From an uncultured Planctomycetales bacterium (GTDB lineage: Bacteria; Omnitrophota; Gorgyraeia; Gygaellales; Profunditerraquicolaceae), in contig CAZQGT010000002.1 in NCBI GenBank assembly GCA_964593005.1, positions 13,324 through 77,323 of the forward strand: DNA of 64,000 bases, read 5' to 3'. Of this stretch, positions 1 through 64,000 are shown one piece after another. The notes beneath the pieces are model-generated. The model ran no database searches, had not been told where the DNA came from, and worked only from the letters and a program-made list of their open reading frames with translations. The first letter of the stretch is position 1. Each line of letters opens with the position of its first letter. The translations under genes were made by a program, and so were the position numbers.

Positions 1-1175
1 ACTTCTTTTTTGAAGGAACCCCTATTGACATGGCAGTTTCTGGCGACGGGCAATACCCTCTTGTTGACATCGTAAGGCGCATCAATTTCGGAAAAGATAT
101 GGATGGGGTTGAAGGGGTTATACTGCGTTTGGGAGATGGGAAATTGTTGAGGCATGGGGCTTCAAGGTTTACGGATTGGAATATTTTGCCTAATCCTGAT
201 TATTCCGAGCTGAATATGGATTATTATTCAAAGCCGCATACAGGAATAATTCGTAATTTGATCGTATCCGGAGTCCATATCTTTACGGCTATAGGGTGTC
301 CATTTTCATGTACTTTTTGCGCTAACAGCAATAAAGAGGTTAACTATAGGCCGATTGCAAATGTTCTCGAGGAAATTGAAAAATTAAGGGATGATTACAA
401 GATAGACGCATTCTATATCCTTGACGATACCTTTCTTCTTAAAAAGTCCAGGGTAATTGAATTTGTGGAGGGGTTAAAGAAGAGGAAAATTGATCTAATC
501 TGGGCAATGGAGACAAGGGTAAATATAATTGATGAGGAAATGGCTAAGTTAGTCAGTGAAGCAGGATGTATGCAGGTTGATTTTGGCATAGAATCAGGTT
601 CTGGCGAAGCTTTAGTTAGAATGAAAAAGGAAATAACCAGAGAACAGGCTTTTAAGGCGCTTGATATTTGTACTAAATATAATTTAAGGACTCTGGTTCA
701 TTTTATGTTTAATACTCCGGGAGAAAGCGAGGATGATGTAAAAAAAACTTTAGAAATGATCCGAAAAATAAGGCCAACCAGGCTTTCCATATGCCTGACG
801 GTGCCTTTTCCCGGAACGGTTATTTATAATGAATACGTTTTGCCGCCTTTAACTAAGGAAGAGTATAGGATCTATAATACACCTTATTTGTATTTTAAGG
901 TCGTTGATCGCCGTTTTTATATGGCAAGACATAAGCTGGATATAGTCAGCCTTAGAATCAAGGCAACCGCAAATGCCAATAAGTTTCGCAGCATAATGGA
1001 TTATACCTTTAATCCGATTTATTGGAGAGCTGTATTTAAGAGCAAGAAAAAAATGCAGTATTTGAAGGTATTATCAAGCGATTTTATTGCTCTTTTGATC
1101 TCAAGGGCAGGGAAAGTTTTAAAGGCCTATTTATTTTTTCGGCGTCAACCCAGGCGATCGACAGATGTATTATGA
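1..1175 (+). CDS. B12-binding-domain radical SAM protein (class B), 5'-truncated at the window edge
   Basis: The reading frame is open from nt 3 with no upstream stop, so the track's ATG at 30 is probably internal. A CxxxCxxC radical SAM cysteine triad is present (GCPFSCTFCAN) about 90 aa in. Downstream has the glycine-rich TIM-barrel character typical of B12-rSAM enzymes. The N-terminal cobalamin-binding domain presumably lies upstream of the window. Confidence 0.6.
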   Translation, partial: FFFEGTPIDMAVSGDGQYPLVDIVRRINFGKDMDGVEGVILRLGDGKLLRHGASRFTDWNILPNPDYSELNMDYYSKPHTGIIRNLIVSGVHIFTAIGCPFSCTFCANSNKEVNYRPIANVLEEIEKLRDDYKIDAFYILDDTFLLKKSRVIEFVEGLKKRKIDLIWAMETRVNIIDEEMAKLVSEAGCMQVDFGIESGSGEALVRMKKEITREQAFKALDICTKYNLRTLVHFMFNTPGESEDDVKKTLEMIRKIRPTRLSICLTVPFPGTVIYNEYVLPPLTKEEYRIYNTPYLYFKVVDRRFYMARHKLDIVSLRIKATANANKFRSIMDYTFNPIYWRAVFKSKKKMQYLKVLSSDFIALLISRAGKVLKAYLFFRRQPRRSTDVL

Positions 1176-1218
1176 GTGGGTGCTATAAGATACGAATGTC
1201 AAATATAGGTGAACTTTC

Positions 1219-2463
1219 ATGAAAACAATCCTGATTTTGGATATGTCCTATACCCTGAAAATGTTCAGGGAAAGGCAAATGTGGCAGGCTTTAGAGAGCA
1301 GGAAGTTGGGAGGGTATTTTGGCAAAGTAATTTCAGCGCATCCGCTGGCCGGATTGTTTGAGTCCGGTAATAATAGGTTCGGAAAACCCGTGGTTACTCA
1401 ACTGGATGATTCGCATCTGTTCGTGGAAGGTAAATTCGGGGTCAGCCGTATGTTGCGTTTTGTAGCTCCATTGAATTTCCTTCTTGCGCAAATTAGCTTA
1501 GTTCGATTGTTAATAAAAATGAACCGCCAAGCCAAGGTGGATATGCTGCGCATAGGAGATCCGTATTATTTGGGTCTGATGGGATTGTTTTTAGCAAAAA
1601 AAATGAGAGTTCCTTTGGCGCTTCGCGTTTCTTTTCGCTATGATGAGATTTTTAGGGTAACGGGTAAATCCGTGTTTCCGCGCTTGTTCAGGTTTCGATG
1701 GATTGAAAAAGTTATAGAGAGGCTTGTATTCTCGCGCTGCGATTTAATCGTCGGAGTGAACGAAGATAATATGAATTATGCTTTAGAGAACGGAGGCCGT
1801 CCTGAGGTTGCAACGGTTTTTCGGTATGGTAATTTGATACATCAAAATCACTGGCAGGAACCAAGCAAACGGGAGGGCGCCGAGACAAGGCTTGCGGAAA
1901 TTGGGTTAAGAGATGAGAAATTTGTGGCAACGGTAGCTAGGCTAGAGCCGATGAAATGCGTAGAAGATACCATTCGTGTTGTAGCTGAGCTTCTCAGGCG
2001 TGGGCACCGCGTTAAAGGGCTTATTATCGGGGATGGAACTCTGAAGCAGGACCTGGAGAGTTTGGCAGTTACATTGGGGGCAAAAGATGCGGTAGTATTT
2101 GCCGGCAATCGCACTCAAGAGTGGATAGCCGCTGTTTTACCAAGGGCTATAATTATTATTTCGCCGCACATGGGAAGAGCGTTAACCGAATCCGCGCTCG
2201 CAGGAGTGCCGATTGTCGCTTATGACTATGATTGGCAAAGAGAGGTTGTTGTTAACGATGAAACCGGATACTTAGTGCCTAATAAAGATTGGTTATTATT
2301 ATCGGATAAAGCGGAGAATATATTGAAAGACCCCGTTAATGGAAAAAGAATGGGAGTCAATGTCCGTGAAAAAATATTAAATATGATGGATCCTAAGAAA
2401 TTAGAGCTTCATGAACAAAACGAGTATTCTAAAATGTTAAAGCGATTTTCTATGAAAGCATAA
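1219..2463 (+). CDS. Glycosyltransferase, GT4 (group 1) family
   Basis: C-terminal GT-B signature: GLIIGDGTLKQDLE ... GRALTESALAGVPIVAYDYDWQREVVVNDETGYLV (EX7E-like region). Confidence 0.65.
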   Translation: MKTILILDMSYTLKMFRERQMWQALESRKLGGYFGKVISAHPLAGLFESGNNRFGKPVVTQLDDSHLFVEGKFGVSRMLRFVAPLNFLLAQISLVRLLIKMNRQAKVDMLRIGDPYYLGLMGLFLAKKMRVPLALRVSFRYDEIFRVTGKSVFPRLFRFRWIEKVIERLVFSRCDLIVGVNEDNMNYALENGGRPEVATVFRYGNLIHQNHWQEPSKREGAETRLAEIGLRDEKFVATVARLEPMKCVEDTIRVVAELLRRGHRVKGLIIGDGTLKQDLESLAVTLGAKDAVVFAGNRTQEWIAAVLPRAIIIISPHMGRALTESALAGVPIVAYDYDWQREVVVNDETGYLVPNKDWLLLSDKAENILKDPVNGKRMGVNVREKILNMMDPKKLELHEQNEYSKMLKRFSMKA

Positions 2464-2469
2464 TAAGGC

Positions 2470-3384
2470 ATGGGCAATATTTTACTAAAGAAAATATTTA
2501 AAAAAACTATCCCTTTTCTGCCAGGTTATCATTGGTTATGTTTGGTATTGCGAAAAATTAAACCGAAGGAATGGAAATGGGTTGATAGGATTCCCGTGAA
2601 ACCAGGAATGATCGTTGTGGTTCATTCAAAAGTAGGCGATTTTCAGATGGGTTGCCCGGAACGTTGCAGTATCGCAAAAAAATTTTTCTGGACTCATGGA
2701 ATCAGCGAACCAGCAGAAGACCGGAAAGCGCTTGATTTATTCGCATATTTAGCCAAATGCTCAGAGGTTGTCCTGGATATTGGGGCAAATTCAGGCCTCT
2801 TTTCCCTGATGGCAGCTAAATCGAATCCTGATGCGCAAGTTATTGCCTTCGATATTTTTCCCGAAGCTTATCATATATCCGTTGATAATCTAATATTAAA
2901 TAATCTGCTGGGAAAAGTAGAAATTCAACTGACCGGGGTAGGGCCTCAAGGGAAGATATTTTATGCGCCATTTTATAATATTTCGAGCGAAATGCCCACC
3001 AGCCTGTCATTGGACTATAAAACGAAAAGTTGCCGTCAGATTCAGGTACCGGTAAAAACACTTGATGAAATATGCATCCCGCGTTTTGTTGGAAAAAAGT
3101 TATGCATAAAGATTGACGTTGAGGGTACAGAGGCTGATATTTTTAAATACGGGCTCGATACCTTGACCACAATAAAGCCGGACATTATTTGTGAGGTTAT
3201 TTCGAACGCAAGGCAGGTCCAACTTTACGATAAAATACTTAAGGACTGTTTATACCGAAAATACCTCATTACAGATGAGGGGCTTAAAAGATTTGATATA
3301 GTCAAACCTGATAAGCGTTATAAAGATTGGTTTTTTACCGCGAAAAATAATCCGGAAATTGAAAATATAGAATTATTAACATGA
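2470..3384 (+). CDS. FkbM-family SAM-dependent methyltransferase
   Basis: Motif I-like VVLDIGANSGLFSLMAAK and an AFDIFPEA segment typical of FkbM-domain methyltransferases. Confidence 0.55.
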   Translation: MGNILLKKIFKKTIPFLPGYHWLCLVLRKIKPKEWKWVDRIPVKPGMIVVVHSKVGDFQMGCPERCSIAKKFFWTHGISEPAEDRKALDLFAYLAKCSEVVLDIGANSGLFSLMAAKSNPDAQVIAFDIFPEAYHISVDNLILNNLLGKVEIQLTGVGPQGKIFYAPFYNISSEMPTSLSLDYKTKSCRQIQVPVKTLDEICIPRFVGKKLCIKIDVEGTEADIFKYGLDTLTTIKPDIICEVISNARQVQLYDKILKDCLYRKYLITDEGLKRFDIVKPDKRYKDWFFTAKNNPEIENIELLT

Positions 3385-3391
3385 GCAAACT

Positions 3392-4390
3392 TTGAAAGCT
3401 GTTATGAAAAAAGTATTCCACTTTGTTCCTTCGCTAGATATAGGTGGCGTTGAGATCGCGATTAAGAAGTCTTTGGCTGATCTCAGGCAGAAACTGGATA
3501 TTAGCATCTTTTACGTAAGACGCCCCGGAAGCCTTGATGTTGGCCAAGCTCCGTGGTGGTGCGCCCTCAAGAATATTTTCTTTGACAAGCCTGATATTGT
3601 TATTACTTCACTCTGGTGGGCTCATTCATTTGGTTTTCTGTTTAAGCTGGCCGGCGTAAGGTGGATATGTTTTATTCACAACTCACGGTTTGCCAATACT
3701 ATCGATCGTTTTGTTTGTACCGTATCCATAAGGTTTGCAGATAAAGTTGCGGCAGATTCTGATCAAGCAATAGCCTTTGTCCGCTCGATAAAGAAAACAG
3801 CAAATGTACACCTGATTCCTTACATATTTCCATTATCTCAGTGCGTAATGAAAGTTGAGCGGATCAAGAATACATTTATTTATGTTGGCCGTAATGCAAA
3901 AGAAAAACGGATGGATCTCGTTGTAAATTTTTTTAAACACCTTTTGGATAAATTTCCCGCTGTTACATGCCGGTTCGTTATCGCCGGCGATGTTCCGCTA
4001 GCCGCTTTAAATTTAATGAAGGCGTTTGGAAGGCGCGTTGCTATCGAGTCAAACCTATCAAATAGCGAGGTATTCAATCGGTTATTTGCGTCTGAGTACT
4101 TCGTTGTGTTATCTGACCTTGAGGGATTCTGTATGACGGCATACGAAGCTGTTCAGGCAGGTTGTTTTATCATCTATAGAGATGTGGGGGAGATAAAGAA
4201 TTATGTTATTCCTGGCCAGTCGTTTAAGTTGATGAATTTTGATAATTTATATAATCAATTTGATGAAGTTCTAGTAAAAAGAAATAAAATTGATCTAATG
4301 CAGGTTGATAGCATTGGTCCGAAATTACTAAATAATCCCGGCGCTACATATACCTCTCATTTTATAGCCCTGGTAGAAGGGGATGGATAA
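3392..4390 (+). CDS. Glycosyltransferase, GT4 family
   Basis: N-terminal FVPSLDIGGVEIAIKK (GT4 GGxE motif). C-terminal EGFCMTAYEAVQAGCFII (EX7E motif). Confidence 0.55.
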   Translation: MKAVMKKVFHFVPSLDIGGVEIAIKKSLADLRQKLDISIFYVRRPGSLDVGQAPWWCALKNIFFDKPDIVITSLWWAHSFGFLFKLAGVRWICFIHNSRFANTIDRFVCTVSIRFADKVAADSDQAIAFVRSIKKTANVHLIPYIFPLSQCVMKVERIKNTFIYVGRNAKEKRMDLVVNFFKHLLDKFPAVTCRFVIAGDVPLAALNLMKAFGRRVAIESNLSNSEVFNRLFASEYFVVLSDLEGFCMTAYEAVQAGCFIIYRDVGEIKNYVIPGQSFKLMNFDNLYNQFDEVLVKRNKIDLMQVDSIGPKLLNNPGATYTSHFIALVEGDG

Positions 4391-4392
4391 TA

Positions 4393-5247
4393 ATGGATGG
4401 GAAACAAAACGATCTGAATGCAAATGTGATCAAGGATTTTGGTTCTGAATGGAGCAGGTTTGATCAGAGTATCCTTTCGGCAGCCGATCAAGCGGAAATG
4501 TTTAAGGGTTATTTTAATATATTCCCTTGGCATAAACTTACTTCAAATTCTATCGGCGCCGATATTGGTTGCGGCAGCGGGCGATGGGCTTCTTTAGTCG
4601 CACCGCGCGTTGGGCATCTCTATCTTATAGACCCAAGTAAGGAAGCGTTAGCTGTAGCTCAGAATAACCTCTCGAATTTAAAAAATATTTCTTTTTATCA
4701 AGTTCCGGCAGATGGCCTGCCTTTTAAAGCTGAGAGTCTTGATTTTGCTTATTCTCTTGGCGTCTTGCACCATGTTTCTAATACGCCAGAAGCTATTGTT
4801 TCTATTGCTCGCGTCTTAAAACCCGGTGCGCCATTTTTAATTTATTTGTATTATGCATTAGACCAGCAGCCTCTGTGGTTTCGCGTTATTTGGCGCCTTA
4901 GCAGTATCTTTCGCAAGCTTATTTCCAGAATGCCCAATCGGCTAAAAAATTTTGTTTGTGATGGTATAGCCTCGTTGATTTATTTCCCGCTAGCCAGGGC
5001 AGCATTGTTACTTGATTGGTTTGGGATACTTCCTTGTTCATGGCCTTTAGCTTATTATCGTAGGCGTAGCTATTATGTTATGCGTACAGATGCCCTGGAT
5101 CGTTTTGGCACCCGTTTGGAGAAACGCTTTAGTCGTGCAGAGATTACCGCTATGTTGGTATCCGCCGGATTCACGGATATCCGCTTTTCTGATACGCAGC
5201 CGTTTTGGTGTGCGGTAGGCATAAAGCGGGCTTGTGGGGAAACTTAA
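4393..5247 (+). CDS. Class I SAM-dependent methyltransferase
   Basis: Motif I ADIGCGSGRWASLVAP. Post-I acidic residue in LYLIDPSKEAL. Motif II-like LDFAYSLGVLHHV. Confidence 0.6.
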   Translation: MDGKQNDLNANVIKDFGSEWSRFDQSILSAADQAEMFKGYFNIFPWHKLTSNSIGADIGCGSGRWASLVAPRVGHLYLIDPSKEALAVAQNNLSNLKNISFYQVPADGLPFKAESLDFAYSLGVLHHVSNTPEAIVSIARVLKPGAPFLIYLYYALDQQPLWFRVIWRLSSIFRKLISRMPNRLKNFVCDGIASLIYFPLARAALLLDWFGILPCSWPLAYYRRRSYYVMRTDALDRFGTRLEKRFSRAEITAMLVSAGFTDIRFSDTQPFWCAVGIKRACGET

Positions 5248-5249
5248 TT

Positions 5250-7211
5250 ATGTGCGGGATAACAGGATTTTGGCAATCAGGTAATTTTTCCATCGATACT
5301 GCTAAGGCTGTTGCAGAAAAAATGGCTTCGCGTATTATTCATCGCGGGCCGGATGATTTTGGCACCTGGGTAGACGGAAGTTTCGGTATTACACTAGCGC
5401 ATCGGCGTTTAAGTATTCTTGAGCTTTCTGCGGCCGGTCATCAGCCCATGGTTTCTTTATCCGGCCGATATGTGATTGTTTTTAACGGTGAAATTTATAA
5501 TCACCTAGAATTGCGGCAGGAACTGAACGTAACCGCCTGGCGCGGGCATTCGGATACAGAAACATTACTAGCAGGATTTGAAGCGTGGGGAATTGAGGTG
5601 ACACTTAAAAAAACTGTAGGGATGTTTGCGATTGCGCTTTGGGACCGTAAGGAAAAAATTCTTATGCTTGCGCGGGACCGGATCGGTGAAAAACCGCTTT
5701 ACTATGGATTTCAGAAAAATACATTTATTTTTGGTTCAGAATTAAAAGCGTTTAGGGCACATCCGGATTTTGTCGGCGAAATTGACCGGGATGTTCTTTG
5801 TCTTTACCTGCGGTATTGCTATATTCCTGCGCCATATTCAATTTATAAAGGAATATATAAACTTCCGCCGGGCAACTTTATACAATTTCCCATTGCGGCC
5901 GGAATCGATGAATTACGTTTGGTAAAACCTAAGGCTTACTGGAGTTTAGCTGAGGTTGCGTCGAAAGGACGCGTCCATCCCTTTGTCGGCAGCCTTACGG
6001 ACGCAGTTACTGTTCTTGATAAACAATTGAGGCGGGCAATTGCCTTGCAGATGGTAGCAGATGTGCCGCTGGGTGCTTTTTTGTCTGGTGGGGTTGATTC
6101 TTCAGTAATTGTCGCTCTTATGCAGGCCCAGTCAACCCGGCCGGTAAGGACATTTTCTATTGGGTTTAATGAAGGAGGCTATAATGAAGCCGGATATGCA
6201 AAGGCTGTGGCTAATCACCTTGGCACGGAGCATACCGATTGCTATATTTCATCGGCAGAGGCGATGCGGGTTATTCCACGGCTGGCCGGTATGTATGATG
6301 AGCCATATTCGGATTCATCTCAAATACCTACTTTTTTGGTATCTCAAATGGCGAGTAAGCATGTTAAGGTTTCTCTATCAGGTGATGCCGGAGATGAGTT
6401 GTTTTGTGGTTATAACCGTTACGCGTTGGCTGATATCTGGAGAAAGATTGAGAGAGTCCCATTTGGGCTCAGAAGGATGGCAGGCCGTCTCGTAAGAACG
6501 GTTGGTTTATTAGCCCGAAATAATATTTTTCAACACACAGGAAAAATTTCCGCGTTATCATCCAATATGAGCGAAAAATTGGAGAAACTTTCTTGGCTTA
6601 TGGATAGTGTTGATGATAGTGATTCTCTTTACTATAATTTGGTTTCTAAAGTTATGACTCCGGATCGTGCAGTTTCATCTGCCAGAGAGCCCGGAAGCTG
6701 GCTTACGGAATCAGGATTGAAATTACAATTTTCAGATCCTAAAATTAATATGATGTATATGGATTGTATGACCTATCTACCGGACGATATTTTAGTTAAA
6801 ATTGATCGCGCGGCCATGGCAAATAGCCTTGAAACACGGGTACCTTTTCTTGATCATAGGATTATTGATTTGGCGTGGTCTTTACCTCTTTCTATAAAAA
6901 TGTGCAATGGCCAGAGTAAATGGATATTGAGGCAGGTACTCTACAGATATGTGCCAAAAAGGCTTATTGAGCGTCCAAAGATGGGTTTTGGTATTCCTGT
7001 CGGAGAGTGGATACGCGGCCAACTTAGAGATTGGGCAGAGGCGCTGTTAAGCGAATCTCGCATACAACAAGAGGGGTTTTTTGATGCCCAGTTTATCCGA
7101 TTACGCTGGCAGGAGCATCTTTCCGGAAAACGTAATTGGTTCCATTTTCTCTGGAGCGTGTTGATGTTTCAGGAGTGGCTAGAAGAACAAAAGCAAGGGG
7201 TATTAGGTTAG
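5250..7211 (+). CDS. Asparagine synthase (glutamine-hydrolysing)-like amidotransferase, AsnB family
   Basis: With the start moved to the ATG at 5250 the protein begins MCGITGFW, giving the Ntn Cys2 nucleophile of the class II glutamine amidotransferase domain. The synthetase domain carries the PP-loop SGGVDSS. Length matches AsnB/WbpS-type enzymes. Confidence 0.75.
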   Translation: MCGITGFWQSGNFSIDTAKAVAEKMASRIIHRGPDDFGTWVDGSFGITLAHRRLSILELSAAGHQPMVSLSGRYVIVFNGEIYNHLELRQELNVTAWRGHSDTETLLAGFEAWGIEVTLKKTVGMFAIALWDRKEKILMLARDRIGEKPLYYGFQKNTFIFGSELKAFRAHPDFVGEIDRDVLCLYLRYCYIPAPYSIYKGIYKLPPGNFIQFPIAAGIDELRLVKPKAYWSLAEVASKGRVHPFVGSLTDAVTVLDKQLRRAIALQMVADVPLGAFLSGGVDSSVIVALMQAQSTRPVRTFSIGFNEGGYNEAGYAKAVANHLGTEHTDCYISSAEAMRVIPRLAGMYDEPYSDSSQIPTFLVSQMASKHVKVSLSGDAGDELFCGYNRYALADIWRKIERVPFGLRRMAGRLVRTVGLLARNNIFQHTGKISALSSNMSEKLEKLSWLMDSVDDSDSLYYNLVSKVMTPDRAVSSAREPGSWLTESGLKLQFSDPKINMMYMDCMTYLPDDILVKIDRAAMANSLETRVPFLDHRIIDLAWSLPLSIKMCNGQSKWILRQVLYRYVPKRLIERPKMGFGIPVGEWIRGQLRDWAEALLSESRIQQEGFFDAQFIRLRWQEHLSGKRNWFHFLWSVLMFQEWLEEQKQGVLG

Positions 7212-7239
7212 GGCATACTTTTTAACCCTAGGAGGTTTT

Positions 7240-8172
7240 GTGCTTAAATTTGTTTGCGTATTACCAAATGGCGCTTTAAAGAAGGTGCTAAAACGATTGC
7301 GTTTATATCATCCGTCGCTGCATCGTTTGATGGAGCTCTCTAGAGGTGATAAAGAGTCACTCCTTAGCCGATCCAAAGAATTTAGTGGGCTCTTACAAGA
7401 TCTTTTGATTAATGGTGTTTGGAAATATACTAATCCGGGGCGGTTGGCTGGTTTAGATGAGTGGGTTGCATCAATCCTGCCGCGTTTTAGTTCTCAGCCA
7501 TTCAGGATGCTGGATGTGGGGGGGTCTGATGGCAGTACCACTTTTGATACAATAAATTATTTTAAAAAAAAATGTGGCTTAGGAGTGAAGGCGTATATAC
7601 TTGATATGCAGTTACGCTTGCATTGTTTTCGCCGGGGATACTTGTGGTATTACCTTACTTATTGCCATAGCCCGCTATTAATCCAAATTGGTCCGTTGGG
7701 CATTTTATTTGAAGAGATTAAGTCCAAGGAGGGAGTGGTTTTTAACCTGATTGTCCGGGTAATAAGAAAGTGTATGCAACGTTTTTCTTTGGAAAAATAC
7801 ATGAATAATTACGGGGATCTTCTTTTAGAGAACCCGTTGGCTAGAAACAACTCAGATATAATTTGGCTGGAGCAGGATCTTTTCCAGTTTGATCCAGCAT
7901 TGAAAGGATCTTTTGATTTTATCCGTTGCAGCAATGTATTAAATGATTGTTACTTTAGCCAAGCCCGGATTTATGATGCGTTGCGTTTATTGGCCATTTA
8001 TCTAAAGCCAGGAGGCCTGCTTTTGGTGTCTCGGACAATAGAAGATTCTACCGGTTTTTTGAATCACGCAAGTTTGTGGGTTAAGAATGGCGAAGGTCTG
8101 CAGCATTTATCTGATTTAAATGGCGGCTCAGAAGTTAAAAAGTTTATGCAAGTATCGGCGGATCCGCTATAA
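7240..8172 (+). CDS. Hypothetical protein, possibly a methyltransferase-fold protein
   Basis: RMLDVGGSDGSTTFDT resembles Rossmann motif I and LKPGGLLLVS resembles the motif after it. Otherwise there are no recognisable motifs. Confidence 0.3.
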   Translation: MLKFVCVLPNGALKKVLKRLRLYHPSLHRLMELSRGDKESLLSRSKEFSGLLQDLLINGVWKYTNPGRLAGLDEWVASILPRFSSQPFRMLDVGGSDGSTTFDTINYFKKKCGLGVKAYILDMQLRLHCFRRGYLWYYLTYCHSPLLIQIGPLGILFEEIKSKEGVVFNLIVRVIRKCMQRFSLEKYMNNYGDLLLENPLARNNSDIIWLEQDLFQFDPALKGSFDFIRCSNVLNDCYFSQARIYDALRLLAIYLKPGGLLLVSRTIEDSTGFLNHASLWVKNGEGLQHLSDLNGGSEVKKFMQVSADPL

Positions 8173-10553: not shown

Positions 10554-10565
10554 AGTATGTAACCA

Positions 10566-13688: not shown

Positions 13689-13704
13689 ATGGGGGGTATA
13701 ATAA

Positions 13705-15380: not shown

Positions 15381-15402
15381 AACATACAGGAAAGGAATTT
15401 GT

Positions 15403-16152: not shown

Positions 16153-16155
16153 TAT

Positions 16156-48024: not shown

Positions 48025-48026
48025 TT

Positions 48027-55463: not shown

Positions 55464-55464
55464 T

Positions 55465-57596: not shown

Positions 57597-57630
57597 TACC
57601 TGCTCTCTTTTACAAAAACGAAAGGTTTTA

Positions 57631-58674
57631 ATGAAGCAGGAAATTTTGAATATTTTATTTTGCCCCAAATGTAAGAGTGGTTCTTTAGGTTTAGATAATC
57701 TGGTTACTGATCAGATTGAGATAAGGAGCGGCAGGATTACCTGTGGCAGTTGCCGTGCCGAGTATAATATTAATGATGGTATAATTGATTTGTTTTATAA
57801 TCCGAATAAAAACGTTCTACGCGAGAGGAGGGCAATGGATGAAGATGATTATATTGCTGATGAAACCGGCAAGAAATATAGGATAACAAGTGAAATAATA
57901 GAGAGATTTAAAGACAAATTCCTTTCTTTGCCTGAAGGGGATGGCTCATCTTTTTTTAAACCCGGAGGAAGTTTTCAGACTACCGCCGAAGCCTCGGATA
58001 GATTTTATTCTGCACTGAAAGATTTGTGCTTAAGCGGCGAGGAAAGAATATTAGAAATCGGCGCTTGTTTTTCCTATGCCTCTTTTAAATTCGCGCAAAA
58101 GGGGTGTTTGGTAGTAGCTTTAGATATAAGTAATTATCTAAAAGTTTCGGATCTTTATGTAAAAGAAGCATATTTCGAAAGATTGTTTTCCGATATGCAC
58201 CACATGCCTTTTGTAGATAACAGTTTTGATATTGTATTTGGTTCGGCTGTCCTGCATCACAGTAAGAATCTTAAAGATGTATTTGCTGAAATTAGGCGCG
58301 TTCTAAAGCCCGGGGGCAGGCTTGTTTTAATTAATGAAGCAGCCAGGGGGGTGTTCGAGCGAATTCATCCTGTTTATAAGCAACTGGAAGAAAAGGGCTT
58401 TGGCGACACTGCTTATAATTTATTGGAGTGGAAAAAAGGGGCTAAAGAGGGTGGATTTAAAAAAGTTAAGATTATGTTTTCATCGCTGGCGGATGATTAT
58501 ATAATGAAATATAAGAATAGAGGGGGCAAATACACGTTTAAGGTTAGGTCGGCTTATTTTTTTAAAAAGCACCCTAGATTTGAAAGATTTGTGCTATGGT
58601 TTATAATATTGCCGAGATTATTGTCGAGGCCAAAAAGCTGGAAACTTGTTTGTTATAAAAATGCAAAAAGTTAA
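57631..58674 (+). CDS. Class I SAM-dependent methyltransferase with N-terminal Trm112-like zinc ribbon
   Basis: ILFCPKCKSG...CGSCRAEYNINDGIIDLF. FDIVFGSAVLHH. LKPGGRLVLINE. Confidence 0.6.
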   Translation: MKQEILNILFCPKCKSGSLGLDNLVTDQIEIRSGRITCGSCRAEYNINDGIIDLFYNPNKNVLRERRAMDEDDYIADETGKKYRITSEIIERFKDKFLSLPEGDGSSFFKPGGSFQTTAEASDRFYSALKDLCLSGEERILEIGACFSYASFKFAQKGCLVVALDISNYLKVSDLYVKEAYFERLFSDMHHMPFVDNSFDIVFGSAVLHHSKNLKDVFAEIRRVLKPGGRLVLINEAARGVFERIHPVYKQLEEKGFGDTAYNLLEWKKGAKEGGFKKVKIMFSSLADDYIMKYKNRGGKYTFKVRSAYFFKKHPRFERFVLWFIILPRLLSRPKSWKLVCYKNAKS

Positions 58675-59368
58675 AACAGTAATATTATGCGGCGGCAAAG
58701 GAACCAGGATGGGCAGCGATGAGTTACCTAAGGTTCTATTTCCTATAGGAGGCAAGCCGATACTTTGGCACATAATGAGCATTTACTCGTATTTTGGGTT
58801 CAATGATTTTATATTATGCCTTGGGTATAAAGGCGAGAAAATTAAAGAATATTTTTCGCATACAAATAGATGGAATTTAATTTTTTCCGATACGGGTGAA
58901 AATACTAATACCGGCGGTAGAATTAAGAAGGTTGAGAAATATATTAAAGAAGACTATTTCCTTGCTACCTATGGGGATGGCGTTGCGGATATCGATTTGG
59001 CCCAGCTTGTTAAATTTCACGAAAGGCATAAAAAGAGCGCCACGATTACTGTAGCCAGGCCTATTTCTCAGTTCGGTATCGTGGGAGTTGAGCCTCACAC
59101 TCAGTCTGTTACGCATTTTGAAGAAAAACCAATATTAGACCATTGGATAAATAGCGGTTTTTTTGTTTTTAATAAAAATATTTTTAACTACCTTTCGGAC
59201 AATGATATATTGGAAAGAGATAGTTTTAAGCGTATTTTAAAAGATAAAGAGTTGGATGCTTTTAAACACACGGGTTTTTGGAGATGTATGGATACTTATA
59301 AAGATAACCTTGAATTAAATGAACTTTGGAAGACAAATAAGGCTGCTTGGAAAATATGGAAAAAATAG
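58661..59368 (+). CDS. rfbF: Glucose-1-phosphate cytidylyltransferase (RfbF family)
   Basis: Start moved to the ATG at 58661. MQKVKTVILCGGKGTRMGSDELPKVLFPIGGKPILWHIM is the canonical RfbF/NTP-transferase N-terminus. Length is about 235 aa. Confidence 0.7.
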   Translation: MQKVKTVILCGGKGTRMGSDELPKVLFPIGGKPILWHIMSIYSYFGFNDFILCLGYKGEKIKEYFSHTNRWNLIFSDTGENTNTGGRIKKVEKYIKEDYFLATYGDGVADIDLAQLVKFHERHKKSATITVARPISQFGIVGVEPHTQSVTHFEEKPILDHWINSGFFVFNKNIFNYLSDNDILERDSFKRILKDKELDAFKHTGFWRCMDTYKDNLELNELWKTNKAAWKIWKK

Positions 59369-60339
59369 CGGATTTTTGGAGAAATAAAGTTATTTTTATA
59401 ACCGGGGCGAACGGTTTCCTGGGGTCACATTTAGTAAAAAGAGCCCTTTTTTTAAAGGCCAGGGTTATTGTTTTGATAAAAAAAGATATTGTTTATTCGT
59501 TATTTAAAATTGACGGGTTAGACAAAAAATCCAAGATTTACCGGGGAGATTTATCAGATAGCTTGTTAGTAAAATCAATATTTAAGAATAACAAGATCGA
59601 TGTTTGTTTTCATCTTGCTGCTCAGGCTTTTGTAGGCGTAGCCAATAATTCCCCCTTAAGCACATTTAAGGCAAACATTGAAGGCACCTGGAATGTGCTT
59701 GAGGCTGCCAGGGTTTTTGGAGTTAAAGCTATGGTTGTTGCTTCAAGTGATATGGCTTACGGAGAACAGAAAAAGCTTCCTTGCAAGGAGGGTGCGTCTT
59801 TAACTGCCCTACATCCTTATGATGCGTCTAAATCTTGCGCGGATATTCTTAGCAGGACCTATGCTCATACCTATAAGCTTCCGATAGCAGTTACCCGGTG
59901 TACTAATATCTATGGGCCGGGTGATTTTAATTTCTCAAGGATTATACCGGATGCTTGTCGCTCGGCAGCAAGAGGCAGAAATTTAATTATAAGGGGTAAT
60001 GGCGCTTCTTTGAGAGATTACACTTTTGTAGAAGATATTGTTGATGCGTATTTTATTCTGGCTGAAAATTTATTGAGAAAGAATATTAATTATGGCGAAG
60101 CCTTTAATTTTGGAACCGGTAAACCTATAAGCGTAATTGAGCTTGTGAAGACAATCTTAAAGATTTCCGGAAAACCCGGGTTGCTTCCTAGAATATTGAG
60201 CAAAGCTAAATCGAAATGGGAGATTGATAAATTATATCTTTCTAGCGCTAAGGCGAGAAAATTTTTAAAATGGTATCCTAAATATTCACTCAAAAAAGGT
60301 TTAGAAATAACTTATAAGTGGTACAAGGGGCACCTTTAA
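59347..60339 (+). CDS. NAD-dependent epimerase/dehydratase (extended SDR), CDP-sugar modifying candidate
   Basis: VIFITGANGFLGSHLV. YDASKSC (YxxxK). Adjacent to rfbF. Confidence 0.6.
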   Translation: MENMEKIADFWRNKVIFITGANGFLGSHLVKRALFLKARVIVLIKKDIVYSLFKIDGLDKKSKIYRGDLSDSLLVKSIFKNNKIDVCFHLAAQAFVGVANNSPLSTFKANIEGTWNVLEAARVFGVKAMVVASSDMAYGEQKKLPCKEGASLTALHPYDASKSCADILSRTYAHTYKLPIAVTRCTNIYGPGDFNFSRIIPDACRSAARGRNLIIRGNGASLRDYTFVEDIVDAYFILAENLLRKNINYGEAFNFGTGKPISVIELVKTILKISGKPGLLPRILSKAKSKWEIDKLYLSSAKARKFLKWYPKYSLKKGLEITYKWYKGHL

Positions 60340-60372
60340 TTTTAATCAGAGCAGGGAATAACGGGAGATGCT

Positions 60373-61050
60373 ATGCCGCTCATATCAGTTGTTGTTCCGG
60401 TTTATAATGAAGCCAAAACGATAAAGCAGATAATCGAAAAAATTCAATCTGTAAATATTGATAAAGAAATTATTATTATTGATAATAGCTCAACTGATGA
60501 TACGCATAAGATATTAAGGGGGTTAGCTTATGATAATCTAAAAATTATTTATCATAGTAGCAATCGCGGAAAAGGGGCGTCTTGCCGGACGGGCATAGAT
60601 AATTCTAACGGAGAGTATATTGTTATTCAAGACGCCGATTTAGAATACGACCCGAATGATTACTTGCGTTTATATGAAGCATTAAAAGACGATAAAGCTG
60701 ATATGGTTTTAGGGGCGCGTTTTTTTAAAGGATATCATGGGTTATTATTACATAGATTAGGAAATAGATTTTTAACTTCTACTTTGAATTTTCTTTTTGG
60801 TTCGAAATTAAATGATTATGCAACTTGCTATAAGATGGCCCGCCGGGAAGCATTTAATCGCCTTGGCTTGCAGGCAACGGGGTTTGATATTGAAGTTGAA
60901 ATCATTTGTAAGGCCTTACGTTCTGGTTTTAGGATTAAAGAAGTCCACGCGTCATATTATCCGCGATCTTATAGGGAAGGTAAAAAGATTAGGGTTAATG
61001 ATGCTTTCCGGTCAGTTTTTGCGATGTTTAAATATAAATTCGGGAGATAA
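60373..61050 (+). CDS. GT2 glycosyltransferase, DPM1/GtrB-like polyprenyl-phosphate sugar synthase type
   Basis: ISVVVPVYNEAKTIKQII. IIIIDNSSTDDT. DADLEYDP. C-terminal FRIKEVHASYYPRSYREGKKI. Confidence 0.65.
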   Translation: MPLISVVVPVYNEAKTIKQIIEKIQSVNIDKEIIIIDNSSTDDTHKILRGLAYDNLKIIYHSSNRGKGASCRTGIDNSNGEYIVIQDADLEYDPNDYLRLYEALKDDKADMVLGARFFKGYHGLLLHRLGNRFLTSTLNFLFGSKLNDYATCYKMARREAFNRLGLQATGFDIEVEIICKALRSGFRIKEVHASYYPRSYREGKKIRVNDAFRSVFAMFKYKFGR

Positions 61051-61054
61051 AGAA

Positions 61055-62275
61055 ATGAATATCATGGGATTTTTAGATTTTGCGATTTATTGGTCAATTG
61101 TGATTATGCCTTTTAGTGTAGCCATCTCTCCTGGGATGGCAAACGCTTTTATTGGTTTTTTTATTGTGTTTTTTATAATTAAAAAGGCCCTGACCCGCAA
61201 GCCTTTTTCTACCGATCGCCTAACTTTAATATTCTTTTTTTTGTTTTCATTATTTTCGGTAATTTCGATTATAAATTCGGTTAGTTATAGCGCTAGTTTT
61301 CAGGGTATTGTAAAACTTCTTAAGTATCTGCTCATATTTTTGGTATGCAGCGAAGAGACAAGGGATAAAAAACATATAACAAGAATTATTGTTTCTATTT
61401 GTTTTGGGATATCCCTTATGTCTATTGACGCGTTATGGCAGATGGTTTCCGGTTTTGATTTTGTGCATCATATCGCTATACAGTCTGCGATAGGTTTGCC
61501 TCGGCCGACTGCTTCATTTCCAAACTGTAATATTCTTGGGATTTATTTATCTGCTTTGACTCCATTTATCTTTGGGCTTGGCTGTTTTTATTCCAAGGGT
61601 AGAAGTAAGCTGTTTATGTTTATCGTAAGCGTATTGGGGTTAATAGGAGTTTGCCTTACTTTATCCAGGGGTGCCGGTTTAGGAGTATATCTGGCAATAT
61701 TGTTTTTAAGTATCGCTATGAAGAAGAAATCCCTTATCTTGTTTTTGGTTGGGATACTAGTGGTGTTTCCTTTTGTCGTGCCAAAAAATATAAAACAATG
61801 GGCGAAGGAGGTTAATTATAACCCTTTAGTCTTGATGTGTAATCAGGACCGGATTAGTATTTATAGCAATACTATAAATATGATTAAGCACCATCCTTTT
61901 ATAGGAGTTGGAGTCAATACCTTTTCTAAGAATTACGGAAAATATAAGACCGAGCAAGCCGAGAAGTATGCGCCTACTCCGGATGGCATATACGCGCATA
62001 ATTCTTACCTACAGATGGGAGGGGAAATAGGCCTCTTGGGGCTGCTTGCTTTTATTTTGTTTTTGTTTCAGGTATTTAGGCAGTCTTTCCGTTTAGAGCG
62101 TAAGTCAGATGATAAATATTTAAAAATAATCGCTATATCTTTAGTCGCTTCTATAGTTGCCTATTTAGTAAACAGCCTCACCGAGACCAGCCTGTATTAT
62201 CCAAGAGTGGTGATGATATTCTGGTATTTAATAGGAGTTTCTCTGTCATTAAACAGGTTGGCAAAAGAATCATAA
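61055..62275 (+). CDS. O-antigen ligase/polymerase-family membrane protein (Wzy_C domain), second paralog
   Basis: Start moved to the ATG at 61055 (GGGAGA ribosome-binding site); the track's long ORF overlaps the upstream GT2 by about 240 bp. YAHNSYLQMGGEIGLLGLLAFILFLF parallels the motif in the 44019 protein. Confidence 0.55.
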   Translation: MNIMGFLDFAIYWSIVIMPFSVAISPGMANAFIGFFIVFFIIKKALTRKPFSTDRLTLIFFFLFSLFSVISIINSVSYSASFQGIVKLLKYLLIFLVCSEETRDKKHITRIIVSICFGISLMSIDALWQMVSGFDFVHHIAIQSAIGLPRPTASFPNCNILGIYLSALTPFIFGLGCFYSKGRSKLFMFIVSVLGLIGVCLTLSRGAGLGVYLAILFLSIAMKKKSLILFLVGILVVFPFVVPKNIKQWAKEVNYNPLVLMCNQDRISIYSNTINMIKHHPFIGVGVNTFSKNYGKYKTEQAEKYAPTPDGIYAHNSYLQMGGEIGLLGLLAFILFLFQVFRQSFRLERKSDDKYLKIIAISLVASIVAYLVNSLTETSLYYPRVVMIFWYLIGVSLSLNRLAKES

Positions 62276-62289
62276 AGAAATTTATAAAT

Positions 62290-63066
62290 ATGAGGAAGTT
62301 TTTTTTAATAATACTTTCAGTAGCACTTTTTTTGGTTGGTTTTTATTTTTTTTGGCTTTCTCCAAAATATACCGTGCCTATCTTAATGTATCATAACATC
62401 GGCTATGAGGATGGCAGTTCATTTGTTAAGCCAGAGAACTTTAATAAACAAATGGAATATATCAAAGGCAACGGCTATACAGTGATAACTTTAGATGAGC
62501 TAGTTGCGGGAATTAAAAATAAAAGCCAGTTTAAAAAAAATACAGTTGTCATTACATTTGATGACGGATACAAAGATAATTTTGTCTACGCTTATCCCAC
62601 TTTAAAAAAGTTTGGATTTCCCGCTACGATATTTGTTCCATCGGATTTAATTGGAAAAGAAAAAGCATTATTTAGCTGGAATGAAGCAAGGATTATGAAT
62701 AGAAATGAGATTTCTATTAATTCTCATACCAAGACTCATCTTTATCTTGGGTATGCGCAGGATACAGCTGCTACGCGTAAGGAGATAGCCGGGTCAAAGA
62801 AAGCAATTGAACAGGAGATAGGTGCTCCGGCAGCTTATTTTTGTTATCCCGGTGGCGGTTTTAATGAAATCGTAAAAAAATTAGTTAAAGAGGCCGGTTA
62901 CAAAGGCGCTTGTACTACAAATCGAGGGTCTGACAGATTTAATAACGATATTTATGAGCTCGTAAGGGTGAAAGTAACTAATTCTGATATGACTAAACCT
63001 TTTTCTTTTTGGGTAAAACTTTCAGGATATTATAATTTATTGAGGAGAATAAAAAATTCAAATTAG
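62290..63066 (+). CDS. Polysaccharide deacetylase (NodB homology, CE4)
   Basis: N-terminal TM helix. VVITFDDGYKDNFVYAYPTLKKFGFPATIFV (TFDDG motif). INSHTKTH (His-His metal motif). Confidence 0.7.
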   Translation: MRKFFLIILSVALFLVGFYFFWLSPKYTVPILMYHNIGYEDGSSFVKPENFNKQMEYIKGNGYTVITLDELVAGIKNKSQFKKNTVVITFDDGYKDNFVYAYPTLKKFGFPATIFVPSDLIGKEKALFSWNEARIMNRNEISINSHTKTHLYLGYAQDTAATRKEIAGSKKAIEQEIGAPAAYFCYPGGGFNEIVKKLVKEAGYKGACTTNRGSDRFNNDIYELVRVKVTNSDMTKPFSFWVKLSGYYNLLRRIKNSN

Positions 63067-63144
63067 GGTGATTAAAAATTTACTAGCTATATGTGGCGAT
63101 GGCCTGGCGGATTTTTACTGAATATTCTTTTTAAAGGTTAAAAG

Positions 63145-64000
63145 TTGAATAAAAAAATTTATATTTTAGGGATATCTTGTTTTTACCATGACAGCGCTGC
63201 TTGTTTAATTGCCGGCGGCCAGATTGTTGCTGCTGTTCAGGAGGAGCGTTTTACCCGCAAGAAACACGATTTTAATTTTCCTAAAAATTCCATAGATTAT
63301 TGCCTGAGCGAGGCTGGTATTAAAGTAGAGGACTTAAGCTTTGTGGTTTTTTACGACAAGCCTTTTATCAAGTTTGAGCGTATTTTAGAAACTGCCCTTG
63401 CTTATGTTCCTGTAGGTATAACTCAATTTATGGAAGCAATTCCGCTATGGCTTAAACAGAAACTTTGGATCTCTGAGTTGATTAAGAAGGATTTGGGTTA
63501 TAAGGGGAAAATTTTATTTACTGAACACCATGAGTCTCATGCTGCAAGCGCGTTCTATCCTTCACCTTTTGAGGAGGCAGCATTTTTGACTATAGATGGA
63601 GTAGGGGAATGGGAGACGGCAAGCTTTGGAGTAGGCAGGGGCAATGAATTAGATATTCAGCATTATCTCCGTTTTCCACACTCGCTGGGATTACTTTATT
63701 CGACATTTACTTATTATTGTGGATTTAAGGTTAATTCAGGCGAATATAAACTTATGGGCCTGGCTCCTTACGGCAGGCCTATTTATAAAGATTTGATTTT
63801 GAATGAGTTGATTGACCTTAAGGATGACGGATCTTTTAAGGTAAATATGAAATATTTCGGTTATTGCAATAGCCTGCGTATGACAAACAGCCGGTTTGAC
63901 CGTTTATTCGGTGGGCCGGCCAGAAAACCAGAAACAAAAATAACTCAAACGTATATGGACGTAGCTGCTTCAATACAAGATATAACAGAGGAGATTATGC
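63145..64000 (+). CDS. Carbamoyltransferase (NodU/CmcH/NovN family), 3'-truncated at the window edge
   Basis: TTG start in frame just after a stop. KIYILGISCFYHDSAACLIAGGQIVAAVQEERFTRKKHDFNFP is the hallmark N-terminus of this family. ESHAASAFY His motif. The ORF is absent from the track because it runs off the window. Confidence 0.7.
   Translation, partial: MNKKIYILGISCFYHDSAACLIAGGQIVAAVQEERFTRKKHDFNFPKNSIDYCLSEAGIKVEDLSFVVFYDKPFIKFERILETALAYVPVGITQFMEAIPLWLKQKLWISELIKKDLGYKGKILFTEHHESHAASAFYPSPFEEAAFLTIDGVGEWETASFGVGRGNELDIQHYLRFPHSLGLLYSTFTYYCGFKVNSGEYKLMGLAPYGRPIYKDLILNELIDLKDDGSFKVNMKYFGYCNSLRMTNSRFDRLFGGPARKPETKITQTYMDVAASIQDITEEIM

Follow-up and report, generated by a model that had tools for sequence, protein, structure and literature searches.

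Class B radical SAM genes in an Omnitrophota glycan locus: domain architecture, conserved gene context and a predicted role in sugar tailoring

General organization of the locus

The DNA analyzed in this study, referred to below as the window, is a stretch of 64,000 nt (positions 13,324 to 77,323 of contig CAZQGT010000002.1, assembly GCA_964593005.1) from an uncultured bacterium of the Omnitrophota. It contains a set of genes encoding class B radical S-adenosylmethionine (SAM) enzymes, which combine an N-terminal B12-binding domain with a radical SAM core, interspersed with genes for glycan biosynthesis. All of the approximately 57 window proteins were scanned against Pfam, and about 30 selected proteins were also compared with NCBIfam. 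Eight of the approximately 57 genes encode radical SAM enzymes.

Every family-assigned open reading frame (ORF) of at least 150 aa in the window is located on the + strand, as are the glyoxalase-fold gene and the gene for the 692-aa membrane protein described below. The coding density is approximately 98%; consecutive genes are separated by a median of 4 nt, and 37 of the 54 gene junctions are no longer than 15 nt. Overlaps of 4 nt were found at four junctions involving radical SAM genes (GT2/B3, methyltransferase/B6, NeuB/S1 and GT2/S2; GT2, glycosyltransferase family 2), and many genes of the locus are translationally coupled. The GC content, calculated per 4 kb, varies between 0.36 and 0.43.

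Sequences identical to those of the window are also present on a 78.6-kb contig and several shorter contigs of the ENA sample ERZ27248937. Contigs retrieved from metagenomes and assemblies were designated L001–L097. One of them, L096, originates from the same sample and overlaps the window by 4506 nt with a single mismatch. The window and L096 together define a contiguous locus of at least 73 kb, with at least eight class B genes and two radical SAM genes of the SPASM type. The region of L096 situated 0.5–8.4 kb upstream of the window (positions 437–8304) contains two of these class B genes, a second wzx gene and genes encoding a GT2 protein, an RmlC-like isomerase, a CmcI-like methyltransferase and a class I methyltransferase; the locus thus continues past the left edge of the window.

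Class B radical SAM genes

Six class B genes (designated B1–B6) were recognized in the window, using the Pfam cutoffs of 32.1 bits for PF02310 (B12-binding) and 29.5 bits for PF04055 (Radical_SAM). Five of them are complete: B2 (positions 11982–13688; PF02310 51.8 bits, PF04055 71.2 bits), B3 (21774–23450; 56.4 and 40 bits), B4 (24582–26039; 59.7 and 65.7 bits), B5 (26042–27610; 61.8 and 72.9 bits) and B6 (56199–57596; 59.5 and 94.8 bits). Both domains therefore exceed their cutoffs in each of B2–B6 (52–62 bits for PF02310 and 40–95 bits for PF04055). The remaining gene, B1 (1–1175), is represented by the C-terminal 390 of 507 aa (PF04055 80 bits; motif GCPFSCTFC). It starts 349 nt to the left of the window, and the full-length 507-aa protein encoded by L096 matches both PF02310 (41 bits) and PF04055 (81 bits). 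An earlier note on this DNA, based on the letters alone, had listed six class B proteins; five of these are complete in the window, whereas the N-terminus of B1 lies outside it and its B12-binding domain is visible only on L096. The two class B genes located further upstream on L096 encode proteins of 515 and 505 aa, with PF02310 scores of 42 and 32.3 bits, respectively, and PF04055 scores over the cutoff. The cysteine motif G-C-x3-C-x2-C was read in all six proteins B1–B6, and CxxxCxxC also occurs in the L096 sequences.

The pairwise identity among B1–B6 is only 21–27%, and they are therefore old paralogues that have not arisen by recent duplication. A scan of species-representative genomes with B5 yielded only two distant relatives (22–25% identity). 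Hydrophobic segments were noted at the C-termini of B2, B3 and B5. Their possible role as membrane anchors was considered and set aside as a weak hint only, because charged residues occur in them and the B2 alignment shows little conservation there.

B5 also differs from its surroundings in base composition: its GC content is 0.47, compared to 0.338 for the preceding B4 and 0.362 for the following YfhO-like gene (per-gene values; neighbouring genes 0.34–0.36). Such a sharp step between adjacent genes suggests that the locus is a mosaic assembled by gene-sized horizontal replacements.

Relationship of B1–B6 to characterized class B families

The equivalog families compared with B1–B6 were PhpK, HpnJ, HpnR, BchE, ApyD, ladderane-lipid radical SAM, MgmA, KedN5, BzaD, TsrM and AprD4, plus TIGR04295 and TIGR04013. 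Apart from generic radical SAM families, all NCBIfam matches of B1–B6 were to class B families, namely the eleven named here. None of the scores reached the curated cutoffs (50–160 bits versus 250–775); B1–B6 therefore belong to class B by their architecture, outside any described family. The best profile for B2, B4 and B5 was BchE, with HpnJ in second or third place.

A search of PDB sequences with B2–B6 identified AprD4 (6fd2) as the best match of B3 (E-value 4e-8), B4 (8.5e-23) and B5 (3.4e-19). These alignments span the radical SAM core only. The best match of both B2 and B6 was 9ccb, identified as MgmA from PMC11796369 and PMC12931638. Further matches were obtained with TokK, TsrM, CysS and OxsB.

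An AlphaFold 2 (AF2) model of B6, generated from 35 homologues (predicted local distance difference test (pLDDT) 85, predicted TM-score (pTM) 0.84), was compared with PDB structures. The model matched TsrM, OxsB, MgmA, CysS, AprD4 and TokK over both domains (E-values 1e-22 to 1e-17), and the alignments with TsrM, OxsB, MgmA, CysS and TokK comprise 394–454 columns. TsrM was the best fold match, and the cobalamin-binding enzymes TsrM, OxsB, MgmA and CysS all outranked AprD4. TsrM, TokK, CysS, MgmA/QCMT and OxsB superpose on the predicted B6 structure over both domains with query-normalized TM-scores of 0.61–0.65, but share only 17–22% identity with it; they act on tryptophan, a carbapenem, an aminobenzoate thioester, a protein glutamine and a nucleotide, respectively. 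The combined PF02310 and PF04055 matches, the restriction of specific NCBIfam matches to class B families and the modelled fold of B6 agree with the class B assignment given in the earlier note, and HemN-like enzymes without a B12-binding domain are excluded.

The reaction catalyzed is a separate question. GenK, GenD1 and Fom3 are class B C-methyltransferases of gentamicin and fosfomycin biosynthesis (PMC4340712, PMC4039129; in part general knowledge). Like B1–B6, they combine a radical SAM core containing CxxxCxxC with a B12 domain at the N-terminus. GenK and GenD1 act on aminoglycoside carbons, and Fom3 on a CMP-activated substrate, which parallels the position of B2 beside a CMP-transferase gene (see below). 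In contrast to the present locus, with its eight class B genes, these enzymes belong to actinomycete secondary metabolism and occur as one or two per locus. AprD4, from apramycin biosynthesis, likewise has the two-domain layout of B3–B5, and its substrate is an aminosugar. However, it is a radical SAM 1,2-diol dehydratase that does not methylate, and it lacks cobalamin in its B12-like domain. B1–B6 are not members of the AprD4 family, since they score only 23–99 bits with the NCBIfam model, compared to a cutoff of 500.

In view of these similarities, the glycan might be tailored mostly by reactions other than methylation, such as 1,2-diol dehydration or deoxygenation, epimerization, C–C bond formation or ring contraction (as in OxsB or as proposed for HpnJ), with some of the B12-like domains being vestigial and devoid of cobalamin. 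The position of AprD4 as the best solved sequence match of B3, B4 and B5, the non-methylating nature of both BchE and HpnJ, the similarity of the SPASM enzyme S1 to the radical SAM dehydrogenase BtrN and the abundance of classical methyltransferases in the locus would all fit such a scheme. However, the AprD4 alignments are limited to the radical SAM core, PF02310 exceeds the gathering cutoff in all eight class B proteins, and the B6 fold is closest to TsrM, with cobalamin binders ranking above AprD4. Moreover, most characterized class B enzymes are methylases. We consider a predominantly non-methylating set of class B enzymes rather unlikely, while C-methylation as their dominant reaction appears quite conceivable, though short of an even chance. 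The C-methylation chemistry put forward in the earlier note was not confirmed at the family level: no methylase cutoff was reached, and B3, B4 and B5, three of the five queries, had the non-methylating AprD4 as their top solved match.

The B2 module is associated with putative genes for ulosonic acid synthesis

B2 is the first of six genes (positions 11982–17987) arranged in the order: B2, a NeuB-like synthase gene, the SPASM-type radical SAM gene S1, a CMP-transferase gene, a class III aminotransferase gene and a glyoxalase-fold gene. The 292-aa NeuB-family ulosonic acid synthase (13705–14583; PF03102 263 bits) scored below the equivalog cutoffs for both NeuB (248 bits; cutoff 400) and PseI (201 bits; cutoff 340). 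The start codon of S1 (14580–15380; PF13186 36.9 bits, with a SPASM cutoff of 21.5 bits; PF04055 31.3 bits) is an ATG overlapping the stop codon of the synthase gene by 4 nt. The sole relative of solved structure found for S1 was BtrN (E-value 4e-7). The following gene encodes a 249-aa PseF/KdsB-like cytidylyltransferase for CMP-sugar acids (15403–16152; PF02348 72.6 bits; 136.6 bits with PseF, below the cutoff of 205.7). The module ends with the class III aminotransferase (16156–17553; PF00202 298 bits) and a glyoxalase/VOC-fold protein (17550–17987; PF00903, matched on the identical contig L001).

As in the nonulosonic acid pathways (NeuB/PseI/LegI with NeuA/PseF), a synthase, a PseF-like CMP-transferase and an aminotransferase are thus grouped in one block. 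The window differs from these pathways in that its synthase and CMP-transferase remain below the equivalog level, matching at the Pfam family level only, so that a full nonulosonic pathway was not recognized, and in that it contains no hydrolysing epimerase of the NeuC/PseG type (no Epimerase_2 gene was found in the window by Pfam scans). We know of no nonulosonic acid pathway that contains radical SAM enzymes. In 2-deoxystreptamine synthesis, the radical SAM dehydrogenase BtrN supplies the product that is then transaminated, and oxidation followed by transamination is also the principle of Kdo8N-type routes. The BtrN-like S1 and the adjacent aminotransferase gene therefore suggest an anaerobic oxidise-then-aminate step. 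A phosphonate (Fom3-like) pathway, to which the CMP-transferase might also have pointed, was rejected, as the Pfam matches included neither phosphoenolpyruvate mutase nor any other phosphonate enzyme.

Another Omnitrophota contig (L011) carries all six genes in identical order. On a contig from a Deltaproteobacteria metagenome-assembled genome (MAG), a B2 homologue (42% identity) is followed by genes encoding a CMP-transferase, a nitrilase-family protein, a SPASM radical SAM enzyme and an aminotransferase, and adjoins wzx and a gene of the Glycos_transf_4 family (PF00953, WecA/MraY-type). In a Bdellovibrionales MAG, a B2 homologue occurs together with LIC12162, AsnB and CMP-transferase genes.

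The distribution of such neighbourhoods was examined by scanning metagenomes with a B2-family alignment. This analysis revealed 521 relatives and retained 80 loci; for 45 of these, each at least 10 kb long, all ORFs were compared with the window proteins by BLASTP. Glycan-type neighbours of some kind were present in 40 of the 45 loci, and a NeuB or CMP-transferase homologue in 29 (NeuB in 23, CMP-transferase in 25). DegT aminotransferase genes were detected in 19 of these loci, LIC12162-family genes in 12, and two or more class B genes in 11. Since neither NeuB nor the CMP-transferase occurs in any of the five B6 loci described below (0/5), this association is specific to B2.

A further link is provided by the 870-aa homologue P0325 (51% identical to B2), which is a natural fusion of an N-terminal class B enzyme with a C-terminal GT2 domain. 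It is encoded at positions 362–2974 of two 3.4-kb contigs (L014 and L015) from two different assemblies.

The B6 module and a predicted GT-C glycosyltransferase

The second conserved block (positions 53385–63066) begins with a gene encoding a 692-aa membrane protein (53385–55463) that gave no Pfam or NCBIfam match. It contains approximately 13–15 hydrophobic segments, and in a comparison of its AF2 model (pLDDT 88.7, pTM 0.91) with PDB structures the top 26 matches were all glycosyltransferases of the GT-C fold (STT3/PglB, ArnT, DPY19, EmbB and PMT). Recognized by predicted structure only, it represents on the strength of this model a new family of GT-C glycosyltransferases, specific to Omnitrophota among the named members. 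The family consists of 159 proteins of about 690 aa and has no Pfam model. All named members are Omnitrophota "hypothetical proteins", and one homologue carries PF13231.

The next genes encode a class I methyltransferase (55465–56202; PF13847 66.8 bits), whose coding sequence overlaps the start of B6 by 4 nt, B6 itself, and a class I methyltransferase with a Trm112-like zinc ribbon (57631–58674; PF08241 69 bits, PF03966 25.4 bits; motifs CPKC and CGSC). These are followed by genes for proteins resembling glucose-1-phosphate cytidylyltransferase (gene at 58709; TIGR02623 250 bits) and CDP-glucose 4,6-dehydratase, a short-chain dehydrogenase/reductase (SDR) family protein (gene at 59347; TIGR02622 192 bits); both scores are just under the cutoffs, and the pair extends over positions 58709–60339. 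Downstream lie genes encoding a 225-aa GT2 resembling polyprenyl-phosphate sugar synthases (60373–61050; PF00535 127 bits; best NCBIfam matches AglJ, a haloarchaeal dolichyl-phosphate hexose transferase, PpgS and ArnC), a 424-aa Wzy_C-family protein resembling a WaaL ligase or O-oligosaccharyltransferase (61001–62275; PF04932 78.8 bits) and a polysaccharide deacetylase-family protein (62290–63066; PF01522 91.6 bits).

More than 110 B6 orthologue clusters (57–82% identity) were found, and every named source is a member of the Omnitrophota. The source names attached to orthologues of B6, of the 692-aa protein and of B2 are all Candidatus Omnitrophota/Omnitrophica, including Ca. Saelkia tenebricola. 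A Leptospira rfb locus, which the GC content, the arrangement of the genes on one strand and the LIC12162-family match had initially suggested, was rejected on the basis of these names. Gene contexts were compared for four contigs with B6 orthologues (L005, L006, L008 and L009, the last from GCA_028716965.1) and one (L010) with a homologue of 43% identity. All five are glycan loci with two to three class B genes per 20 kb. L009 corresponds to the window gene for gene, from the 692-aa protein through the class I methyltransferase, B6, the Trm112-zinc-ribbon methyltransferase, the cytidylyltransferase, the 4,6-dehydratase-like SDR, the 225-aa GT2 and the Wzy_C/WaaL-like protein to the deacetylase and heptosyltransferases. 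The GT-C gene directly upstream of B6 and the Wzy_C/WaaL-like gene downstream are present on all four orthologous contigs, the PpgS-like GT2 gene next to the WaaL-like gene on three (L005, L006 and L009), and at least one methyltransferase gene adjoining B6 also on three (L005, L008 and L009). The methyltransferases, CDP-sugar genes and the small GT2 each occur in only some of L005, L006 and L008. On L010, the B6 homologue is accompanied by two more class B genes, a SPASM radical SAM gene, wzx and genes of glycosyltransferase family 4 (GT4). Class B genes recurrently lie beside GT2 or GT-C genes, as in the B4–B5/YfhO and GT-C/B6 pairs of the window and in loci L005, L008 and L010.

Two of these loci also contain genes for thiamine-diphosphate enzymes with aldolase/dehydrogenase genes, next to DegT/epimerase genes (L005, positions 1–4720; L008, 15252–21398). 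By analogy, they are reminiscent of YerE-type branched-chain sugar synthesis and may represent a second route to C-branched sugars.

The arrangement of the B6 module, with a small GT2, a deacetylase-family protein and a GT-C protein near a WaaL-like protein and core heptosyltransferases, resembles the ArnC/ArnD/ArnT, GtrA/B/C and CsbB/YfhO systems. It differs from such three-component systems in that the GT-C belongs to a new family without a Pfam match, no flippase was identified, and class B and methyltransferase genes are inserted.

The occurrence of B2 and B6 homologues in glycan loci, seen in each of the individual contexts examined, and the B2-like/GT2 fusion extend the connection between class B enzymes and glycans, claimed in the earlier note, beyond mere co-location. 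They also bear on the possibility that the substrate is not a glycan, but a peptide, a membrane lipid or polyprenol, or a cofactor, and that the class B genes merely share an operon or hypervariable island with glycan genes. Many class B families act on peptides or lipids, the profile matches included ApyD, the ladderane-lipid radical SAM family and MgmA, and both the hydrophobic C-terminal segments of B2, B3 and B5 and the mosaic GC content could be read in this way. However, machinery for another biosynthetic pathway and an obvious precursor-peptide gene are both absent from the window, class B and glycan genes stay together across many loci of several phyla, and translational coupling as well as fusion to a GT2 were found. 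A non-glycan substrate is thus very improbable.

Methyltransferases and the second SPASM enzyme

Besides the two enzymes adjoining B6, the window encodes an FkbM methyltransferase (2470–3384; PF05050 54 bits), located between the GT4 genes at 1219–2463 and 3392–4390; class I methyltransferases at 4393–5247 (PF08241 75.5 bits) and 33166–34194 (PF08241 47.7 bits); a class I methyltransferase with an N-terminal zinc ribbon (23462–24346; PF13489 80.6 bits; motifs CDLC and CCVC); and a TcaB9-type NDP-sugar C-methyltransferase of the classical, non-radical type (52093–53355; PF08421 46.7 bits, PF13489 57.9 bits, PF08484 139.9 bits). The last protein contains all three domains diagnostic of TcaB9-type NDP-sugar C3-methyltransferases, and matches Methyltransf_13, 23 and 14. 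TcaB9 chemistry, i.e. classical enolate methylation of 4-keto sugars, does not account for eight radical enzymes. The gene following the methyltransferase at 4393 encodes an AsnB-type amidotransferase (5205–7211; Asn_synthase 395 bits).

Of the approximately ten methyltransferases counted previously, seven are firm (2470, 4393, 23462, 33166, 55465, 57631 and 52093), whereas those at 34946 and 7240 (E-value about 1e-3) are sub-threshold. The zinc-ribbon N-termini proposed for the proteins at 23462 and 57631 were verified, with two CxxC pairs each.

Class I methyltransferase genes adjoin class B genes in several places (55465/B6/57631 and B3/23462 in the window, as well as L005, L008, L009 and L011), and CysS is among the structural matches. 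These observations raise the possibility that the class B enzymes iteratively extend O- or N-methyl groups in the manner of CysS, giving ethyl or isopropyl ethers with no C-methylation of the ring. However, adjacency is the sole basis of this proposal, the sequence similarity to CysS is weak (E-value 9e-5), and to our knowledge sugar ethers of this kind have not been described. We regard it as improbable.

The second SPASM-type gene, S2 (50027–51094; PF04055 63 bits, PF13186 28 bits), has a start codon overlapping the stop codon of the preceding GT2 gene (49068–50030) by 4 nt. Both radical SAM genes previously described as lacking a B12 domain were thus recovered, the second with the predicted SPASM domain, but this domain is present in the first (S1, at 14580) as well. 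S2 closes a block (47290–51094) composed of a PpgS/ArnC-like GT2 gene, a DUF362 gene, a second GT2 gene and S2 itself.

Glycan genes and the type of pathway

The Wzx/Wzy-type gene set is complete, comprising a small initiating polyprenyl-phosphate glycosylphosphotransferase (41561–42124; PF02397 191 bits), a Wzx-type flippase (29903–31429; PF01943, PF13440 and MatE) and two Wzy_C proteins, namely the WaaL-like protein of the B6 module and the product of the gene at 44019–45308 (PF04932 76 bits). Ten glycosyltransferases were recognized by Pfam: seven of the GT2/GT4 type, the GT2 proteins starting at 21058 and 60373, and the YfhO-like protein starting at 27611. GT4 genes start at 1219, 3392 and 39415, and GT2 genes at 21058, 38319, 47290, 49068 and 60373. 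The GT2 gene at 21058–21777 (PF00535 86.5 bits) overlaps the start of B3 by 4 nt with its stop codon. The YfhO-like polytopic membrane protein of the GT-C type (27611–29872; PF09586 33.9 bits; approximately 14 hydrophobic segments) is encoded 1 nt downstream of B5. A transferase of the LIC12162 family, typical of O-antigen regions, is encoded at 31407–33179 (TIGR04331 396 bits; cutoff 225).

The assembly genes also include a PglF-like dehydratase gene (42190–44013; PF02719 390 bits). Those for making and decorating sugars include a WbpA/B/D/E-like set (45321, 19452, 20479 and 35709). The CDP-glucose-type genes (58709 and 59347) are accompanied by the TcaB9-type C-methyltransferase gene and by reductase genes. 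These Pfam and NCBIfam matches (Wzx, Wzy_C, the phosphoglycosyltransferase, glycosyltransferases and NDP-sugar genes) bear out the description of the region as a glycan locus. Heptosyltransferase genes of glycosyltransferase family 9 (Glyco_transf_9) are present downstream of the window and in the orthologous loci, which points to lipopolysaccharide (LPS). The window therefore probably represents most of a single-strand, Wzx/Wzy-dependent LPS O-antigen/outer-core locus.

Predicted function of the class B enzymes

The proposed mechanism builds on the observed two-domain architecture with its fold, the tight operon-like spacing of the genes, their conserved synteny and the GT2 fusion. Tailoring of sugars is well supported by the genomic context, while C-methylation and the use of cobalamin are inferred. 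Overall, radical tailoring of glycan sugars by the radical SAM enzymes of the locus is the explanation we favour, and we consider it somewhat probable.

According to this model, a class B enzyme would cleave SAM reductively at its [4Fe-4S]/SAM site and abstract a hydrogen from an unactivated carbon of a sugar, the substrates being nucleotide-activated or polyprenyl-phosphate-linked sugars. In most cases a methyl group would then be transferred from methylcobalamin, yielding C-methylated or further alkylated sugars beyond the reach of SN2 methyltransferases; some of the eight enzymes may instead dehydrate, epimerize or rearrange their substrates. The classical methyltransferases would be responsible for O- and N-methylation, and the TcaB9-type enzyme for enolate C3-methylation.

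In the B2 module, the NeuB-like synthase would form a 3-deoxy-ulosonic acid, which the BtrN-like S1 and the class III aminotransferase may oxidise and then aminate. The PseF-like enzyme would activate this acid with CMP and B2 would modify it, with the LIC12162-family transferase as a candidate for its attachment to the glycan. In the B6 module, a sugar of the CDP-6-deoxyhexose type would be tailored by B6 and the two methyltransferases, loaded onto polyprenyl phosphate by the PpgS/AglJ/ArnC-like GT2 and added to the glycan in the periplasm by the new GT-C protein, much as in the Arn, Gtr and YfhO systems.

Several observations weigh against this interpretation. As no curated cutoff was reached, neither the substrate nor the type of reaction can be carried over from a characterized enzyme. 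Judged by sequence comparison, several best profiles (BchE, HpnJ) are those of non-methylases, and AprD4 is the nearest relative of solved structure for B3, B4 and B5. The locus already contains a classical C-methyltransferase of the TcaB9 type. No cobalamin riboswitch, transporter or corrinoid gene was found in the window by Rfam (gathering level) and Pfam scans. The fold matches of the 692-aa GT-C model have only moderate TM-scores of approximately 0.4. Finally, since the Wzy_C family spans ligases, polymerases and O-oligosaccharyltransferases, LPS synthesis is indistinguishable from protein O-glycosylation or assembly of another glycoconjugate.

A broader generalization can be proposed tentatively: class B radical SAM enzymes may form a regular, so far unrecognized class of enzymes that tailor surface glycans in uncultured anaerobic bacteria (Omnitrophota, and relatives in MAGs of the Bdellovibrionota and Desulfobacterota types), producing novel monosaccharides. 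B2 might then yield radical-modified (e.g. C-alkylated) CMP-ulosonic acids and B6 a sugar destined for the polyprenyl-phosphate/GT-C route, and surface diversity would be tied to cobalamin. Few enzyme groups whose substrates are mostly unknown are as large as the class B radical SAM enzymes, and a conserved association spanning several phyla would define a new class of substrates, tied to ulosonic acid and GT-C/polyprenyl-phosphate genes. If correct, this would mean that the envelopes of ultra-small Omnitrophota with a possibly host-dependent lifestyle contain new monosaccharides, and that cell-surface structure is linked to cobalamin and anoxic radical chemistry. Since the modules are compact (six and approximately ten genes) and their substrates predictable (CMP-ulosonic acid and CDP-hexose), heterologous reconstitution is feasible.

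Cobalamin supply and relation to published systems

According to Seymour et al. (PMC10066038), cobalamin biosynthesis is present, but not universal, among Omnitrophota. As some of these bacteria synthesize cobalamin, a need for an external source is not implied, and the dependence of the organism on cobalamin supply, proposed in the earlier note, was not supported. The window itself, which has neither a cobalamin riboswitch nor a corrinoid gene, has no bearing on this point.

Literature searches of incomplete coverage found nothing that connects class B radical SAM enzymes to the synthesis of O-antigens or polysaccharides or to rfb genes, which agrees with the view that this chemistry is undescribed for surface polysaccharides. 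Likewise, no publication joining nonulosonic acids and radical SAM enzymes was found, and the association of class B enzymes with glycan genes is not discussed in two papers on Omnitrophota genomes. In addition, a 2026 review of B12-dependent radical SAM enzymes nowhere mentions sugars, glycans or polysaccharides (PMC12931638). The enzymes and pathway types of the locus are of known kinds, and it is their combination that is new to the searchable literature.

The general idea has scattered precedents. The TIGRFAMs family "B12_rSAM_oligo" belongs to a rhizobial cassette of glycosyltransferase-type genes, and a putative radical methylase acts on a sugar in moenomycin.

Additional features of the window

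Three consecutive genes at 33166–35707 encode the class I methyltransferase mentioned above, a kinase-like protein (34191–34949; weak matches to APH, choline kinase and RIO) and a weak methyltransferase (34946–35707; PF13489 25.7 bits, under the cutoff of 27). This trio recurs, as a whole or in part, beside B2 homologues on contigs L019 and L026, and may add a decoration of the phospho- or methyl-phospho type.

A scan for promoters and terminators that could mark module borders between positions 10000 and 25000 gave counts not above those of shuffled controls. Rfam produced no match at the gathering level anywhere in the window, including the SAM riboswitch.

At the right end, the window cuts an O-carbamoyltransferase gene (63145–64000; PF02543 250 bits), whose complete product on L097 is 607 aa long. 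On this contig (positions 10856–15774, corresponding to the window from 63145 onward), it is followed by genes encoding an SxtJ-family protein, a DUF5989 protein, a GT2, a heptosyltransferase and a TylF-type methyltransferase. The carbamoyltransferase, SxtJ-family and DUF5989 genes resemble the sxtI-J-K arrangement of saxitoxin clusters.

The ORF at 8173–9762 encodes a membrane protein with about nine transmembrane segments and no family match. It contains an 87-bp in-frame tandem repeat (9019–9238; 2.5 copies, 99% identity), which corresponds to a 29-aa unit located in a loop and suggests that part of this possible polymerase-like protein was recently duplicated.

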